A program made the position numbers and the translations under genes. Positions 2,991-38,749 of a stretch of 64,000 nt of DNA are shown here, piece after piece; the first letter of the stretch is position 1, and each line of letters starts with the position of its first letter. The stretch is taken from IMG/VR virus record IMGVR_UViG_3300022750_000190. One strand, 5' to 3'. The DNA is from a virus. Lineage: Duplodnaviria > Heunggongvirae > Uroviricota > Caudoviricetes. A model generated the notes under the pieces. The model was not told the origin of the DNA. It worked only from the letters and a program-made list of their open reading frames with translations, and searched no databases.

Positions 2991-3053
2991 AAAATATTTT
3001 CTTAATGCTAAATTATAATGCTCCAAGTGTTTGAAAAATAAGTAAAAAAGTTG

Positions 3054-3082
3054 TTGACAAGAGTTTCGAAAGACGTTAAGAT
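3054..3082 (+). promoter_or_regulatory. sigma70-like promoter TTGACA-17-TAAGAT upstream of tRNA-Ser
   Basis: TTGACA at 3054-3059 and TAAGAT at 3077-3082. It shares the upstream element GAAAAATAAGTAAAA-AGTTGTTGACAAG with the promoter at 4521. Confidence 0.55.
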
Positions 3083-3113
3083 AGTTACACAAAGCAAGAA
3101 AATGTAATAATAT

Positions 3114-3201: not shown

Positions 3202-3205
3202 ATTT

Positions 3206-3291
3206 GGGAAGTAGTTTAGCGGTTAAAACATCAAGACTCCTGCAGGCTGAGTTTTGAAGATGGGACAGTTCGAATCTGTCCTTTCCCACCA
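3206..3291 (+). tRNA. atypical tRNA-like gene (extended anticodon arm; anticodon not assignable)
   Basis: Acceptor GGGAAGU/CUUUCCC, D-arm GTTTAGCGGTTAAAAC, T-arm GACAGTTCGAATCTGTC, A73 and CCA are all tRNA-like. The anticodon region folds as a 9-bp stem UCAAGACUC/GAGUUUUGA with a 9-nt loop CUGCAGGCU. Confidence 0.35.
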
Positions 3292-3428: not shown

Positions 3429-3505
3429 TGGTATACGGCTCTGGTGAAGAGTGTGAATCGGTCACTTAATCATGTATGTAGGTTCGAGTCCTACTATACC
3501 AGCCA
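3429..3505 (+). tRNA. tRNA-like gene, 77 nt, CCA encoded; anticodon arm could not be folded by hand
   Basis: Perfect acceptor UGGUAUA/UAUACCA, D-arm GCTC-TGGTGAA-GAGT, T-arm GTAGGTTCGAGTCCTAC, G73 and CCA. The 24-nt middle gives no canonical 5-bp stem with a 7-nt loop. Confidence 0.4.
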
Positions 3506-3710: not shown

Positions 3711-4243
3711 TTAGACGAGTCCTTCGGGACGCTGCATTATCGTCACAAGTGTTATCCAATATGGCAACTTCTATTGGATGAACGACGATATTGTAGGTTG
3801 GAAGTTGCAAAATTCAGGATTTAAAGAACGGTAAAACCAATGCTGATATAGGTTGGTTTTGGGCTAGTCCTTCGGGGCGCTGCATTATCGCCCAAGCGTC
3901 AATCAATATGGCAACTTCTATTGATTGAACGACGATAGTGCAGTTTTGAAGTTGTGATTTTTGTTCCAAAATACGATAGAACTATGTTTTATCCAATCCT
4001 TCGGGGTGCTTAAATATTGTCAAAGTGTCAAATAACATGGCAACTTCTGTTATATGAACGATGATATTTCGGTTTGGGAGTTGCAAGATTTGATGTTGTA
4101 AAGAACGGTAAAGGCAGTGCTGATATAGACTGACTTTGGGCTAGTCCTTCGGGGCGCTGTTACAATGCCGGTGTGTCAATCAGTATGGTGTCTTCTGTTG
4201 ATTGAATGACGTTGCTAACAGTTAGGGAAGACACATTTTTTTT
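3711..4243 (+). ncRNA. tandem array of four homologous structured RNA elements of about 140 nt, organised as a duplicated dimer, ending in an intrinsic terminator
   Basis: Units begin near 3717, 3867, 3996 and 4144, each with a UUCG-capped hairpin GUCC-UUCG-GGAC. They share a long-range helix (GCUGCAUUAUCG...CGACGAUAUUG) and an internal hairpin. The 19-mer CTAGTCCTTCGGGGCGCTG is identical at 3863 and 4141. Compensatory changes keep pairing (GCAACUUC/GAAGUUGC in units 1-3 versus GUGUCUUC/GAAGACAC in unit 4). U8 tract at 4236-4243. Confidence 0.5.
4187..4243 (+). terminator. intrinsic terminator closing the structured-RNA array
   Basis: Stem GTGTCTTC...GAAGACAC with a nested CTGTT/AACAG hairpin, followed by TTTTTTTT. 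Confidence 0.5.
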
Positions 4244-4275: not shown

Positions 4276-4485
4276 ATGTCATTAGTTGAATTTGGTTTGA
4301 ATACAGGTTTTAATTATCGTCTTCAAAAAGATGCTGATGCTATTAATGATAAATACAATAACAAAATCAAAAACACTTCTTTTCGTGGTGAAATTGTAAA
4401 ACTTGATACACAAAGGCGTGATGAATTAAGCAAATTGCATACTTCACATGGCAAAAAATATCAAGGTAGGGGATTCATCGAATAA
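4276..4485 (+). CDS. hypothetical small protein
   Basis: ATG at 4276 preceded by AAGAGAGG 6 nt upstream. The track ORF starts at TTG 4255. Confidence 0.45.
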   Translation: MSLVEFGLNTGFNYRLQKDADAINDKYNNKIKNTSFRGEIVKLDTQRRDELSKLHTSHGKKYQGRGFIE

Positions 4486-4520
4486 TGCTTCAAACGATTG
4501 AAAAATAAGTAAAATAGTTG

Positions 4521-4549
4521 TTGACAAGGGTGTTGCAGGACGATAGAAT
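4521..4549 (+). promoter_or_regulatory. sigma70-like promoter TTGACA-17-TAGAAT for tRNA-Leu copy 2
   Basis: TTGACA at 4521-4526 and TAGAAT at 4544-4549. The leader TAGTCACACAAAG is shared with the copies at 1819 and 30500. Confidence 0.6.
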
Positions 4550-4580
4550 AGTCACACAAAGCGAGAAGATACAAAGCAAT

Positions 4581-4770: not shown

Positions 4771-4799
4771 TTGACGTGATAGTTTGAATGTTGTATAAT
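4771..4799 (+). promoter_or_regulatory. sigma70-like promoter TTGACG-17-TATAAT upstream of tRNA-like RNA A
   Basis: TTGACG at 4771-4776 and TATAAT at 4794-4799. Confidence 0.6.
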
Positions 4800-4819
4800 T
4801 ATCACATATTACAGAATAT

Positions 4820-4989
4820 GGGTACTACCCAACTGGATCATTTGGCGTTGTCATACGTGCAGACAACAATATATGTGTAAGTGGGGGTTAAGCGAGATAT
4901 TAGTATTTATTGTTGGATGAGACCGCACGTACTCGGAAAGCTTTAAAGAAAGTAGTAGCTTGTTGGTTCGATTCCATCAGTATCCGCCA
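4820..4989 (+). ncRNA. tRNA-like structured RNA A, about 170 nt, with tRNA acceptor stem, T-arm and CCA (insert-containing tRNA or stable RNA)
   Basis: 5' GGGUACU pairs with 3' AGUAUCC, followed by G73 and CCA. T-arm GTTGGTTCGATTCCATC, D-arm-like CCAA-CTGGATCAT-TTGG, and a 6-bp hairpin GUUGUC-AUACGUGCA-GACAAC. Homologous to 10644-10808. Confidence 0.5.
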
Positions 4990-5001
4990 GACGTTTAAAA
5001 T

Positions 5002-5078
5002 GGGCCTTTAGCTCAGTTGGTCAGAGCACTCGACTCATAATCGATTGGTCGTAGGTTCAAGTCCTACAAGGCCCACCA
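5002..5078 (+). tRNA. tRNA with CAU anticodon (third species), CCA encoded
   Basis: Acceptor GGGCCUU/AAGGCCC, U8, D-arm GCTCAGTTGGTCAGAGC, anticodon loop CUCAUAA, T-arm GTAGGTTCAAGTCCTAC. Confidence 0.8.
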
Positions 5079-5151
5079 TTTTAAAGAATACGGGAATTGA
5101 ACTGTAAAGGTTCAAGATGATCTAGCGTAGGATAGGGGCGACGATCAAAAT

Positions 5152-5236
5152 GCAAGTGTAAAGGTGCGGTAGTGTAGCCTCTGGCAGCGACGGCATCAAG
5201 TTGGTTACGGTGGTTCGAATCCATCTTCTTGCACCA
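5152..5236 (+). tRNA. tRNA-like gene of about 85 nt with canonical T-arm and CCA; 5' half not resolvable by hand
   Basis: T-arm GGTGGTTCGAATCCATC, then UUCUUGC-A-CCA. The best 5' partner, GCAAGUG, pairs at 5-6 positions. The internal GGTAGTGTAGCC looks like a D-arm. Confidence 0.3.
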
Positions 5237-5290
5237 ATGTTGTGGCGGCTTATGCCCAAACCTACTGTAAAATGGCAAAATAAGCAATAT

Positions 5291-5379
5291 GGGGAGGTAG
5301 CTCAGTTGGTCAGAGCGAATAACATAGATTCTAGAGTCTCGTTATGATGTCGGTGGTTCGAATCCACCCCTCCCCACCA
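5291..5379 (+). tRNA. atypical tRNA-like gene, 89 nt, with a perfect tRNA frame but a 17-nt insertion in the anticodon arm
   Basis: Acceptor GGGGAGG/CCUCCCC, U8, D-arm GCTCAGTTGGTCAGAGC, T-arm GGTGGTTCGAATCCACC, A73, CCA. Anticodon stem AUAAC/GUUAU encloses AUAGAUUCUAGAGUCUC. Confidence 0.4.
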
Positions 5380-5394
5380 GCTTCATGAAACAAT

Positions 5395-5470
5395 TGGCGA
5401 ATAGCTCAGTTGGTAGAGCGACGGACTGTTAATCCGTTGGTCGTAGGTTCGAGTCCTACTCCGCCAGCCA
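5395..5470 (+). tRNA. tRNA-Asn(GUU), CCA encoded
   Basis: Acceptor UGGCGAA/UCCGCCA (one mismatch), D-arm GCTCAGTTGGTAGAGC, anticodon stem ACGGA/UCCGU with loop CUGUUAA, T-arm GTAGGTTCGAGTCCTAC, G73. Confidence 0.8.
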
Positions 5471-5527
5471 AACACGGCTCAACTTGTTTAGTTGTATAAA
5501 ACACTGTTGAGTTCTTTAAACCATACC

Positions 5528-5648
5528 TTTCACGCTTCTTTATAGCGCACCAGAAAGGTTATTGATTCATGGATATTTCACGCTTTTAAGCGCACCAGAA
5601 ATATCGAAAGAGAATACTTTTCACGCTTCTTGTAGGCGCACCAGAAAA
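5528..5648 (+). repeat. three tandem copies of a mini-hairpin motif TTTCACGC-loop-GCGCACCAGAAA
   Basis: Copies at about 5528-5556, 5577-5602 and 5619-5648, each a short CGC/GCG hairpin followed by CACCAGAAA. They resemble tRNA 3' acceptor-plus-CCA ends. Confidence 0.5.
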
Positions 5649-10567: not shown

Positions 10568-10591
10568 TAAATTTTAAAATATATAGAATAA

Positions 10592-10622
10592 GTGTTGACA
10601 GGGAGTCAACACTATAGTATCC
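10592..10622 (+). promoter_or_regulatory. TTGACA -35 box embedded in a perfect 8-bp inverted repeat, then TATAGTATCC
   Basis: GTGTTGAC at 10592-10599 and GTCAACAC at 10605-10612. AGTATCC at 10616-10622 recurs downstream of the inverted repeat at 23829-23869. Confidence 0.4.
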
Positions 10623-10643
10623 TCGCTTTATTGAAACATATAT

Positions 10644-10808
10644 GGGCACTGTCTAACTGCGCAACTGGATTTGGATTGTACAACCAAAAGAAAGTTGCAA
10701 TTGGCGACAAACAGCGATACGAGTACTCTGCTTGGAACGTGTAAGTACAACACGGGAAGGGGAGGTGAAACTATCAAGTTGCTGGTTCGACTCCAGCAGT
10801 GTCTACCA
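10644..10808 (+). ncRNA. tRNA-like structured RNA B, about 165 nt, homolog of RNA A
   Basis: 5' GGGCACU pairs with 3' AGUGUCU then A73-CCA. C4-G69 here versus U4-A69 in RNA A is a compensatory change. T-arm GCTGGTTCGACTCCAGC. Shared blocks ATATGGGYACT, AACTGGAT and CGTGTAAGT. Confidence 0.5.
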
Positions 10809-10828: not shown

Positions 10829-11014
10829 ATGCATCTTAACAAAGCAAAAGCAAAAGAATATTGCGAAACTCTTGGTTATCAAATTATCGCTTATTTTGTT
10901 AATCCTCGTAATCAAGGTCAAGTTAGTTCTGTACTTGTCAATTTTTCGGAAAGTGAAAACATGAAAATTGATAGCAGAACTCTAAAACAAAGAGCGGATG
11001 TTTTCGCTTCTTAA
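10829..11014 (+). CDS. hypothetical small protein
   Basis: 61-aa ORF with RBS AGGTGA. Confidence 0.4.
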   Translation: MHLNKAKAKEYCETLGYQIIAYFVNPRNQGQVSSVLVNFSESENMKIDSRTLKQRADVFAS

Positions 11015-34667: not shown

Positions 34668-34693
34668 TTCAACCAACTTACAGGGAAAATATT

Positions 34694-35254
34694 ATGGGAT
34701 ATACAACTGATTTTTATGGCACTTTTAAAATCACACCAGCTTTAAAAGAAGAGCATAAAGAATATTTACTTGCATTTTCTGATAGCAGAAGAATGAAGCG
34801 TAATGCTCAAAAATGTGAATCACTTCATGATCCTATTAGATTGGCAGTTGAACTCCCTGTTGGCATAGAAGGTGAGTTCGTTGTATCACAAACTGGATAT
34901 GATGACAAATCAATTATTGAACGCAATAGTCCATCTTCAACTCAACCGGGGCTTTGGTGTCAATGGATTCCCAATGATGAAGGCACTGAACTAAAATGGA
35001 ATGGTGCTGAAAAATTCTATGCTTATATAGAATGGCTTGACTATCTTCATACGAAGTTATTTAAACCATGGGGCTACACTTTGGAAGGGATGGTTAAATG
35101 GCGAGGCGAAGATCATGATGATACTGGTAGAATTACTTTCAAAGATAATATATTAAGTCACCAAACTCAAAAGCAACGTGATGATTTACTGGATGAATTT
35201 CTTGAAAAACAAGAAACTGAAAAACCTTCTATTGACTTAAAGAAAAGAGACTAA
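34694..35254 (+). CDS. hypothetical protein, paralog family X (member 1 of 3)
   Basis: MGYTTDF.G.F.ITP.LKEEHK.YL...QPGLWCQW.P...G..L.W.GAEKFY.YIEWL.YL. ATG at 34694 with RBS AGGGAAAA. Confidence 0.5.
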   Translation: MGYTTDFYGTFKITPALKEEHKEYLLAFSDSRRMKRNAQKCESLHDPIRLAVELPVGIEGEFVVSQTGYDDKSIIERNSPSSTQPGLWCQWIPNDEGTELKWNGAEKFYAYIEWLDYLHTKLFKPWGYTLEGMVKWRGEDHDDTGRITFKDNILSHQTQKQRDDLLDEFLEKQETEKPSIDLKKRD

Positions 35255-37667: not shown

Positions 37668-37719
37668 CTATATATTGTTTTTTCGTGTATAATTCCCATT
37701 CATTTAATGGTATTAAAAT

Positions 37720-38229
37720 ATGGGATATACAACTGATTTTGAAGGTTCTTTTCAAATAACACCAACTTTGAAAGAAGAACACAAACAATATTTGATTACT
37801 TTTTCTAAAAAAAGAAGAATGAAACGTGACTCCATTAAATGTGAAGCATTTAATGACCCCATTCGTCAGGCAGTCGAACTTCCCATTGGCATTGAAGGTG
37901 AGTTTACTGTTTTTGGTGATGAAGATTTGTTTTCTAATGATTCATCGATTATTGACCATAATCTCCCATCCCCTACACAACCCGGTCTTTGGTGCCAATG
38001 GATTCCCATGGAAGATGGAAATGCTTTAGTATGGGATGGCGCTCAAAATTTTTACAATTACATTGAATGGCTTGAATATTTAAAGACAAGTTTCTTTGAA
38101 CCTTGGGGTTATACCTTGTCAGGCACAATGAAATGGAATGGACAAGGTTATAATGACACAGGAACCATCACTGTTGATAACAACATCATTACTACTAAAA
38201 AGGGCTGGAACTATGGGATACACAACTGA
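37720..38229 (+). CDS. hypothetical protein, paralog family X (member 2)
   Basis: Same motif set as 34694-35254. Confidence 0.5.
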   Translation: MGYTTDFEGSFQITPTLKEEHKQYLITFSKKRRMKRDSIKCEAFNDPIRQAVELPIGIEGEFTVFGDEDLFSNDSSIIDHNLPSPTQPGLWCQWIPMEDGNALVWDGAQNFYNYIEWLEYLKTSFFEPWGYTLSGTMKWNGQGYNDTGTITVDNNIITTKKGWNYGIHN

Positions 38230-38749
38230 TTTCGAAGGTTCTTTTAAAATAACACCTACTTTAAAAGAAGAGCATAAATTATATTTAAATACATTCTCTG
38301 AAACACGTAGAATGCAACGTGATTCTACAATATGTGAGACTTTTCCAGATCCCATTCGTTTAGCAGTGGCTTTACCTATTGGCGTTGAGGGAGAGTTTAC
38401 AGTCTTTGGTGCTGGTTTTTATGGTCAAGATGACGACAAGTCGATCTTAAACCATAACAAACCACCTGAAACACAACCGGGGCTTTGGTGTAAATGGGTT
38501 CCAAATGAGGATGGAACTCATTTAGAATGGAATGGTGCTGAGAAATTCTATGACTATATTGAGTGGCTAGATTATCTTCACTCTAATTTCTTTAAACCTT
38601 GGGGTTATTCTTTATCAGGTAGTGTGTCATGGAATGGCGAAGACACTAATGATACTGGTGTAATCACCTTTAATGAAAACGTTTTAAGTAGCATGAGCGA
38701 TAAAGAACTTCGTAAACTTTCAAATGTCAACTTGACGAAAAAGGATTAA
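38213..38749 (+). CDS. hypothetical protein, paralog family X (member 3)
   Basis: ATG at 38213 overlaps the 3' end of member 2 by 17 nt in another frame. The track ORF starts at 38138. Confidence 0.5.
   Translation: MGYTTDFEGSFKITPTLKEEHKLYLNTFSETRRMQRDSTICETFPDPIRLAVALPIGVEGEFTVFGAGFYGQDDDKSILNHNKPPETQPGLWCKWVPNEDGTHLEWNGAEKFYDYIEWLDYLHSNFFKPWGYSLSGSVSWNGEDTNDTGVITFNENVLSSMSDKELRKLSNVNLTKKD

Follow-up and report, generated by a model that had tools for sequence, protein, structure and literature searches.

Paralogous tRNA-like RNAs in a phage genome keep the acceptor half of a tRNA and carry two long hairpins in place of the decoding half

What kind of RNA begins and ends like a tRNA and is passed over by the programs that find tRNAs? 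This question is raised by two loci in a 64,000-nucleotide (nt) stretch of DNA from a virus of the class Caudoviricetes (IMG/VR record IMGVR_UViG_3300022750_000190), the whole of which is referred to as “the window” in this study. An initial annotation, made from the letters of the window and a list of its open reading frames (ORFs), had described two homologous tRNA-like RNAs at positions 4820-4989 and 10644-10808, which are here called the type A and type B RNAs, respectively. ARAGORN made no call at either RNA. With the gathering thresholds of Rfam 15, tRNAs were the only matches in the window and none of them fell at either RNA, and a search at E ≤ 10 returned noise only in the two regions. 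We find that the two loci are paralogous members of a previously undescribed phage family of “expanded tRNA-like” RNAs, and the reading that we consider likely as a whole is that these are non-decoding, tRNA-like stable RNAs matured by tRNA-processing enzymes. The parts of the two loci, all on the plus strand of the window, are as follows.

4771-4799, plus strand: sigma-70-like promoter of the type A RNA, with TTGACG (4771-4776), a 17-nt spacer and TATAAT (4794-4799)
4820-4989, plus strand: type A RNA, with its own promoter upstream
4820-4826, plus strand: 5' strand of the type A acceptor stem, GGGUACU, pairing with 4979-4985
4827-4888, plus strand: type A hairpin I, from RNAalifold and pair counting
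4889-4962, plus strand: type A hairpin II, three helices split by internal loops
4962-4978, plus strand: type A T-arm, GUUGG-UUCGAUU-CCAUC
4979-4989, plus strand: 3' strand of the type A acceptor stem, AGUAUCC (4979-4985), followed by discriminator G and CCA (4987-4989)
10595-10623, plus strand: sigma-70-like promoter of the type B RNA, with TTGACA (10595-10600), a 17-nt spacer and TATCCT
10644-10808, plus strand: type B RNA, with its own promoter upstream
10644-10650, plus strand: 5' strand of the type B acceptor stem, GGGCACU
10653-10704, plus strand: type B hairpin I (10661-10698) with a possible enclosing helix
10716-10775, plus strand: type B hairpin II
10781-10797, plus strand: type B T-arm, GCUGG-UUCGACU-CCAGC
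10798-10808, plus strand: 3' strand of the type B acceptor stem, AGUGUCU, followed by discriminator A and CCA (10806-10808)

Homologs were reached via synteny, using a gene for a 246-amino-acid (aa) protein just upstream of the type B RNA and a neighbouring DUF7448 gene. The relatives of the 246-aa protein are 52-98% identical, and members of the RNA family were recovered on their contigs, and on one further contig reached by way of DUF7448, by a simple architecture scan together with nhmmer. This gave 13 distinct members in related metagenomic phage contigs (numbered L051 and so on). Type A members, 169-171 nt long, are found in the window, in L051/L052 and in L062-L064, and type B members, 165 nt long, in the window, L051-L053, L054, L057, L058-L060 and L061/L233. 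A search with the profile of either type finds the other, with colinear matches (E = 2.6e-5 and 1.9e-4). This makes the two window copies diverged paralogs within a single family and bears out the homology first proposed for them. At least two genomes, those of the window and of L051, have retained the two types together, and both paralogs have been kept across lineages whose syntenic protein is just 52-59% identical. A CCA is encoded in every lineage except that of L061/L233, type B members that carry U-CC(C/U)A and not N-CCA (L061 2547-2712; L233 6506-6673, minus strand); in this lineage an exact CCA may be made post-transcriptionally or may be dispensable. In L062-L064 (approximately 5223-5582), two diverged type A copies lie in tandem behind a single promoter with a 16-nt spacer between them, and in L063/L064 a Shine-Dalgarno ORF (GGTGAA...ATG) follows about 30 nt downstream.

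The family is so far limited to one phage clade. The family RNA was not found at the distant DUF7448 loci L234-L239, and DNA pattern scans of IMG/VR, JGI metagenome contigs and GTDB genomes recovered no members, yielding adjacent ordinary tRNAs or chance matches only. A blastn search with both RNAs against 50,697 phage records gave only matches the size of a T-arm. We found no description of this RNA family in the literature, and no entry for it in Rfam.

Both window copies start after an AUAU with GGG(U/C)ACU (GGGUACU at 4820 and GGGCACU at 10644) and end with a canonical T-arm, a 7-nt 3' strand, a discriminator and CCA, exactly as had been described. A single heptamer match is weak evidence for an acceptor stem, as we estimate that a G-U-tolerant partner for a 7-mer is present within 280 nt about 29% of the time. 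A scan of approximately 1.6 Mb of unrelated viral DNA gave 16 “long-only” signatures, mostly AT-rich or derived from adjacent tRNAs. The acceptor pairing was accepted as real because of covariation in the homologs, not because of the heptamer match. All cells of the stem (100%) are paired in the 13 sequences, compared to 27-49% in controls in which the partner strand was slid. The switch at position 4:69, which had been noticed between the two window copies (U-A in type A and C-G in type B), recurs in the family, with U-A in 7 and C-G in 6 sequences, and thus the covarying acceptor stem of the initial annotation is upheld. Both sides have switched at pairs 5:68 and 6:67 in two sequences each, and the variation is one-sided at pairs 1:72, 2:71 and 3:70, the last being G.U in 6, A-U in 4 and G-C in 3 sequences. 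A 5-base-pair (bp) T-stem with a UUCRANY T-loop is present throughout, and in type A a U.U mismatch is conserved at 50:64 of the T-stem. Members differ in their discriminator, which can be G, A or U.

What lies between these ends was examined in an alignment of 7 type A sequences and one of 6 type B sequences (including the diverged L061), using RNAalifold and explicit pair counting. The comparison shows each RNA as a predicted four-way junction of the acceptor stem, hairpin I, hairpin II and the T-arm; the termini appear as a 7-bp acceptor stem running into the T-arm, the “top half” of a tRNA, ending in N73-CCA. Hairpin I (about 38-62 nt) and hairpin II (about 60-75 nt) occupy the places of the D-arm and the anticodon arm. 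In type A, 96.0% of cells are paired (30-46% with slid partners) and 14 pairs have changed on both sides, 6 of them among the 11 pairs of the distal helices of hairpin I. In type B, the corresponding values are 95.3% (33-48% with slid partners) and 7 pairs. For either type, none of 500 shuffled alignments matched the observed paired percentage, the number of both-side changes or the covariation score. A D-arm and a 5-bp anticodon stem with a 7-nt loop are absent from both covariation models, in which the long hairpins have apical loops of 7-10 nt, and with no anticodon these RNAs cannot decode. About 90-100 nt had originally been thought to be inserted into an otherwise intact tRNA; instead, the D-arm and the anticodon arm have been replaced by the two long hairpins.

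In type A, the base helix of hairpin I (ACCC/GGGU) runs straight on from the 5' strand of the acceptor stem, and is followed by a GGAU/GUGUAA internal loop (GUGKAA across the 7 sequences), two covarying helices and a 9-nt apical loop, AUACGUGCA (4853-4861). In type B, hairpin I has a GGA/AGAA internal loop in the window copy (GGA/NGAA across the family) and a 9-nt apical loop, AUUGUACAA (10675-10683). A GGA opposite GAA in hairpin I is thus a conserved purine-rich internal loop. The type B hairpin I is possibly enclosed by a 4-bp helix, CUAA (10653-10656) with UUGG (10701-10704), which is beyond the reach of a covariation test because it is invariant. Hairpin II ends in the apical loop ACCGCACGUA (4922-4931) in type A and in the apical stem-loop CGUGU-AAGUACA-ACACG (loop at 10743-10749) in type B. 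On the same helix of hairpin II, both types have kept AGUA on the 5' side opposite GAA(A) on the 3' side (4902-4905 opposite 4948-4951 in type A, and 10722-10725 opposite 10767-10770 in type B, GAAA in both window copies), and these are among the few internal positions that are invariant in all 13 sequences. The motif presumably fits the consensus of the bulged-G (sarcin-ricin or loop E) module, and it is a candidate docking site for a protein or another RNA.

This fold also decides what became of the two internal sequence blocks that the window copies had been said to share. The block AACUGGAU is indeed homologous between the two types, but it is not a D-loop, as it forms the base of hairpin I and the GGA internal loop. 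The other block, CGTGTAAGT (or CGUGUAAGU), belongs to different structural elements in the two types. In type A it is part of the internal loop of hairpin I, on its 3' side, and in type B it is at the tip of hairpin II, where it is variable and its UAA is not conserved; the two occurrences are not homologous and their likeness is a coincidence. The two-arm architecture, the loop-loop complementarity described below and the AGUA/GAA motif are additions to the earlier account.

The apical loops of the two hairpins are complementary to each other. In type A, the sequence U-ACGU-GC in loop I is the reverse complement of GC-ACGU-A in loop II; the window copy forms 7 bp in an uninterrupted run, and L062 forms 5 bp. 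In type B, UGUAC in loop I faces GUACA in loop II, which gives 5 bp, or 6 bp when the closing A is counted. When the longest Watson-Crick run was compared with those obtained from shuffled or random second loops, P was approximately 7e-4 to 9e-4 for type A and 0.013-0.06 for type B. The calculated energies of the loop-loop duplexes are -10.8 (window type A), -8.5, -5.9 (window type B) and -5.4 kcal/mol. In a joint MAFFT alignment, both loops of types A and B stand in the same register, and two of the five core pairs of this putative kissing helix switch between the subfamilies, one being C-G (7) versus U-A (5) and the other G-C (7) versus A-U (6), while the remaining three are invariant. In L061 and L233, the helix is shifted by one position, a terminal pair being lost and a pair at the other end gained, so that 5 bp are still formed.

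We consider the architecture just described, together with the route of biogenesis outlined here, quite probable. The sigma-70-like elements found upstream of both RNAs agree with the suggestion that each RNA has a promoter of its own. The type A promoter matches the consensus at 11 of 12 positions, is conserved in L051 and L062, and leaves a leader of about 13-14 nt, ending in AUAU, before G1; the -10 element of the type B promoter is TATAAT in the relative L058. Transcription would start at the RNA's own promoter with a leader of about 13-20 nt, and RNase P would then cut at G1. The context is favourable for RNase P: G is at +1, and most members have U at -1 and a 3' RCCA. The 3' end would be trimmed, or its CCA repaired, by the normal tRNA machinery, a step that L061 and L233 would need, and the product may accumulate as a stable species, by analogy with species 1 RNA of phage T4. 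An inverted repeat, AGTGTTGAC...GTCAACACT (10591-10613), which could be an operator, overlaps the type B promoter at its -35 element. L051, L054, L057 and L058 have kept this repeat, and a similar one is present at the type A promoter of L062.

As for function, the acceptor/T/CCA half of a tRNA is recognised by RNase P, the CCA-adding enzyme, EF-Tu and many toxins, and phage tRNA clusters are being re-examined as counter-defence arsenals. In the RNAs described here, the minihelix-CCA module might serve both as a handle for maturation and stability and as the face shown to tRNA-binding proteins, while the arms, locked by loop-loop pairing, would block decoding and carry specific binding surfaces or docking motifs. 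Of the possible roles, we favour that of a non-decoding tRNA mimic or decoy, in which the RNA might titrate or recruit a factor that recognises the acceptor-T-CCA half, for example, a host defence or toxin enzyme acting on tRNA ends.

Several observations weigh against this reading or parts of it. A role as a non-decoding tRNA mimic or decoy is something we infer, and it is consistent with the anatomy, but we hold it only tentatively and would not be surprised to see it fail. The kissing-loop nucleotides are invariant inside each subfamily; because of this, the covariation of the loop-loop contact comes from the comparison of type A with type B (two pairs) and one register shift, and its support for the contact is modest. 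A palindromic GUAC core is common to both type B loops, which inflates their apparent complementarity, and therefore the pairing could be intramolecular (a ring-closing kiss) or intermolecular. The discriminator and the first three pairs of the acceptor stem vary, and one lineage is without an exact CCA, and this variation at the acceptor end argues against one fixed protein-recognition code. ORFs with a Shine-Dalgarno sequence begin within 20-40 nt of the 3' end of the type B RNA and of the tandem type A RNAs of L062-L064, and no terminator separates them from the RNAs, which would be compatible with a role in cis. Taken singly, the sequences have minimum free energy (MFE) z-scores that do not stand out (+0.14 and -1.19). 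The gene neighbourhood indicates no partner, the 246-aa protein having no recognisable fold or family, and all sources of the family are metagenomic assemblies.

Some of these observations bear directly on other explanations. If the apical loops paired between molecules, the RNAs could assemble into dimers or higher assemblies, with the tRNA-like end serving for processing only, an explanation that departs from the one given above solely in how the loops are used. Type B loop I, UUGUACAA, is a perfect 8-nt palindrome, GUAC occurs in both type B loops and ACGU within the type A loops, the genes are duplicated in tandem in L062-L064, and the kissing loops predicted by covariation in ROOL and GOLLD proved to be quaternary contacts (PMC12286853). 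However, the type A loops remain true reverse complements (UACGUGC with GCACGUA) for 3 bp outside their palindromic core, as pairing between two different loops predicts, and the arms are of comparable length, compatible with an intramolecular contact. We therefore regard self-assembly as rather unlikely. The RNAs might also act in cis and not as free trans-acting RNAs: the structure would mainly punctuate a longer transcript, as a signal for RNase P and 3'-end processing or as a stabilising element, and control the genes that follow. The ORF with a Shine-Dalgarno sequence at 10829, 21 nt 3' of the type B RNA with no terminator between, would fit such a role, as would the GGTGAA...ATG downstream of the tandem type A copies of L063/L064 and the position of the window type A RNA directly upstream of tRNA-Met. 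Nevertheless, a plain tRNA or minihelix would suffice as a processing signal, whereas about 130 nt of arms, with covarying helices, invariant loops and motifs, have been kept where the syntenic proteins are 52-59% identical, and the downstream context varies among the members (a tRNA or different ORFs). A purely cis-acting element thus seems very unlikely to us.

Two further explanations start from the resemblance to tRNA itself. A synthetase could charge the acceptor-T-CCA module, with the arms standing in for the anticodon half, and the aminoacylated RNA could take part in translation-related chemistry, either in ribosome rescue as a small relative of transfer-messenger RNA (tmRNA) or as a non-ribosomal amino-acid donor. 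The 7-bp acceptor stem, the canonical T-loop and the encoded CCA are like those of the genome's real tRNAs, G3.U70 is present in both window copies, and they share a CUGGAU block that we take to recall the D-loop of Escherichia coli tmRNA. In addition, the phage encodes a TrpRS, and the type A RNA has G73, the discriminator typical of bacterial tRNA-Trp. Yet the 3:70 pair, which would be the identity pair for alanine and tmRNA, varies among G.U, G-C and A-U, the discriminator may be G, A or U, the type A T-stem has its U.U at 50:64, and one lineage is without an exact CCA. Type B relatives do not keep the stop of a putative tag ORF (GUG UAA): they carry GUGUCAGU or GUGCAAGU, where the candidate reads GUGUCA or GUGCAA, and its positions in types A and B are non-homologous. 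We considered a mini-tmRNA defined by G3.U70, the CUGGAU block and the GUG-UAA tag ORF, and rejected it, as none of the three is conserved in the homologs. Both ARAGORN and Rfam (at gathering thresholds and at E ≤ 10) were silent about tmRNA at the two regions, and the aminoacylation explanation as a whole appears quite unlikely. An insert- or intron-containing tRNA gene, spliced to a tRNA of about 75 nt, had been among the identities first put forward. It is supported only by the tRNA-like termini and by a length about 95 nt in excess of a tRNA, and in the window copy alone a CCAA/UUGG pairing can be drawn as a D-stem. L062-L064 have not kept this D-stem, the supposed insert is flanked by neither a D-arm nor an anticodon arm, the non-tRNA parts are conserved covarying helices, and the helices of the “insert” pair with what would be exon (ACCC with GGGU). 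No match to an Rfam intron model, including the group I intron, was obtained in the two regions at gathering thresholds or at E ≤ 10, and ARAGORN made no call. A hand-drawn cloverleaf with the CCAA/UUGG D-stem, an “anticodon” hairpin and a giant variable arm was also rejected, because the RNAalifold covariation favours hairpin I closed by ACCC/GGGU. We find a spliced tRNA scarcely credible.

Non-decoding RNAs with a tRNA-like half are thus our preferred reading, and the known system closest to them is species 1 RNA (rnaC) of phage T4. Phage tRNA-like stable RNAs in tRNA clusters have been known since the 1970s, and T4 RNA C is abundant and has had no known function since that time. According to reviews and an omics study of 2022, RNAC and RNAD are expressed, as late RNAs, and neither has a known role (PMC3014915, PMC9697503). 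The rnaC gene encodes 139 nt at the end of the T4 tRNA cluster (L188 1409-1547). Homologs were present in 748 T4-like records, mostly unannotated, and Rfam holds no model for it. When rnaC was compared with four diverged homologs (L229-L232), 94.5% of cells were paired, versus 39-47% with slid partners, and 19 pairs were compensatory. Its apical loops, UUGACG in hairpin I and CGUCAA in hairpin II, are perfectly complementary over all 6 nt; they are invariant while their closing stems covary, the chance probability of the complementarity is approximately 2e-4 to 6e-3, and the duplex energy is -7.5 kcal/mol. The MFE z-score of rnaC is -4.6.

Both systems are therefore phage genes in or beside a tRNA array, in which a terminal stem of 7 positions is contiguous with a canonical T-arm (CCGGG-UUCGAAU-CCCGG in T4), a short helix continuing the terminal stem (AGG/CCU in T4) closes a long hairpin I, and a second hairpin before the T-arm completes a four-way junction; both also have invariant, mutually complementary apical loops, a feature derived in this analysis. 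In contrast, there is no sequence similarity past the level of the T-arm and T-loop (nhmmer in both directions, E > 0.01), and rnaC differs in having two U.U mismatches in its terminal stem, no encoded CCA, a length of 139 nt instead of 165-171 nt, neither the AGUA/GAA motif nor the GGA/GAA internal loop at equivalent places, and no promoter of its own immediately upstream, as it lies 6 nt past rnaD, which itself follows tRNA-Arg. Because sequence homology is lacking, the window RNAs are an architectural analogue and not members of the rnaC family. The proposal of a T4-like stable RNA is thus the best match among the identities first suggested, in architecture only: the four-way junction and the complementary loops agree, while sequence similarity and the encoded CCA do not.

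Other known RNAs resemble the family in fewer respects. Like these RNAs, tmRNA has an acceptor stem, a T-arm, CCA and no anticodon arm, and in both a non-tRNA structure that includes long-range pairings lies between the two halves; the family RNAs, however, are about half as long and conserve neither G3.U70 nor a tag frame. YrlA (RF02553), which some phages carry, is a non-coding RNA that mimics the T-arm and acceptor, but its termini form the Ro60-binding stem and its tRNA-like module is internal, whereas here the termini are the acceptor stem. The YrlA model scored 13.2 bits against a cutoff of 69 bits, in a match that covered the T-arm only. ROOL and GOLLD sit near phage tRNA islands, and their kissing loops are contacts between chains (PMC12286853). 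As structured phage RNAs beside tRNA genes with conserved kissing-loop contacts (PMC12286853) they are similar, but they are 3-5 times larger and have no terminal acceptor/T/CCA module, and no Rfam match to them was found here. Canonical and class II tRNAs share the acceptor stem, the T-arm, the discriminator, the CCA and a place in tRNA operons, and differ in the length of the molecule, about 70-95 nt in a canonical tRNA, and in the D-arm and anticodon arm, which the family RNAs have exchanged for arms of 38-75 nt.

Look-alikes of tRNA that do not decode escape tRNAscan-type tools, ARAGORN and Rfam. The family supplies a structure, backed by covariation, that keeps the acceptor half of a tRNA and drops the decoding half. 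A design common to unrelated phages suggests that selection, whether convergent or very ancient, has acted for a single function. It is possible, and we offer the idea with considerable reserve, that the family RNAs and T4 species 1 RNA belong to one widespread and overlooked class with an acceptor/T half and loop-locked arms, whose role would be to subvert or evade host factors acting on the acceptor-CCA end or to assemble RNA particles. If so, the comparative data from megaphages and a version that bears CCA make the 50-year-old question of T4 RNA C testable, and T4 genetics and these comparative data could together reveal the function.

The window itself is phage-like and has about 32% G+C. 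Its sequence is part of a 604,209-bp metagenomic contig (ENA ERZ27228643 k141_1005676), which is probably a giant phage (megaphage). No phage hallmark genes were identified among the genes of the window, and no close relative of it is present among the 50,697 deposited phage records. A Pfam scan of 40 window ORFs and a PHROG scan of 20 of these identified the TrpRS, a thymidylate synthase, an SPFH protein, DUF families and an HNH endonuclease; the window proteins are otherwise mostly without an assigned family, and the scans gave no clue to a partner of the RNAs. The TrpRS is 65% identical to copies in Acinetobacter-labelled records, a weak hint as to the host. ARAGORN called 14 ordinary tRNAs in the window. 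The type A RNA lies within this array between tRNA-Leu and tRNA-Met, the latter beginning 12 nt 3' of it, which equals the spacing between neighbouring tRNAs, and the type B RNA lies 3.2 kb past the last tRNA of the array.

The syntenic 246-aa protein had no match in Pfam, PHROG or the sequences of PDB, and its AlphaFold model (predicted local distance difference test score, 82) had no Foldseek match in PDB or BFVD, the best E being about 0.08. In L057 (513-1121) and L058 (554-1162), an RNA ligase gene (PF09414) is located 2-3 kb from the type B RNA, and the related contig L055 carries a gene for a Tpt1/KptA RNA 2'-phosphotransferase (4812-5366), a hint that genes for RNA repair are grouped in this part of the genome. 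On the more distant contig L236 (5774-12169), the DUF7448 gene adjoins Cas3-like and Cas7fv-like genes, and this suggests a type I-F-variant CRISPR module.

One blastn match of the two RNAs lay under a “tmRNA SsrA” annotation in Vibrio phage D51 (L048, OZ196642.1; 2766-3200). This feature is an annotation artefact that spans several ordinary tRNAs. Upstream of it, the same genome carries, at 1843-2005, a 163-nt element with the stem GGCGGAG/CUCCGCU, an A, CCA, a weak T-arm and an anticodon-like arm with CAU, for which neither ARAGORN nor Rfam made a call.

The tRNA array of the window has further features of its own. Three tRNA sub-operons each have upstream of them a copy of a repeated promoter block (about 90 nt; TTGACA...TAGAAT or TAAGAT), at 1750-1838, 3015-3103 and 4482-4570. 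Three near-identical copies of tRNA-Leu(UAA) and two identical copies of one tRNA(CAU) gene are present in the window, and direct repeats lie in the spacer between tRNA genes (3746-4211), with a 62-nt unit present three times and a 122-nt unit twice. A 77-nt gene at 3429-3505 resembles a cloverleaf: its acceptor stem is UGGUAUA/UAUACCA, its discriminator is G, CCA, a D-arm and a good T-arm are present, and its “anticodon” arm is only a 4-bp stem with a 5-nt loop. It was missed by ARAGORN and Rfam, and L051, a close relative, lacks it; the gene may be decaying as a pseudogene or may be a further tRNA look-alike that does not decode. An 87-nt non-canonical tRNA at 3205-3291, which reached only 37 bits with Rfam and was not called by ARAGORN, has a 9-bp stem with a 9-nt loop at the anticodon position in its MFE fold. 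Elsewhere in the window, diverged direct repeats of 200-260 nt (67-76% identity) lie 3' of the TrpRS gene at 34678-35158, 37704-38193 and 38197-38689, where they overlap ORFs, and these are probably paralogous gene duplications.

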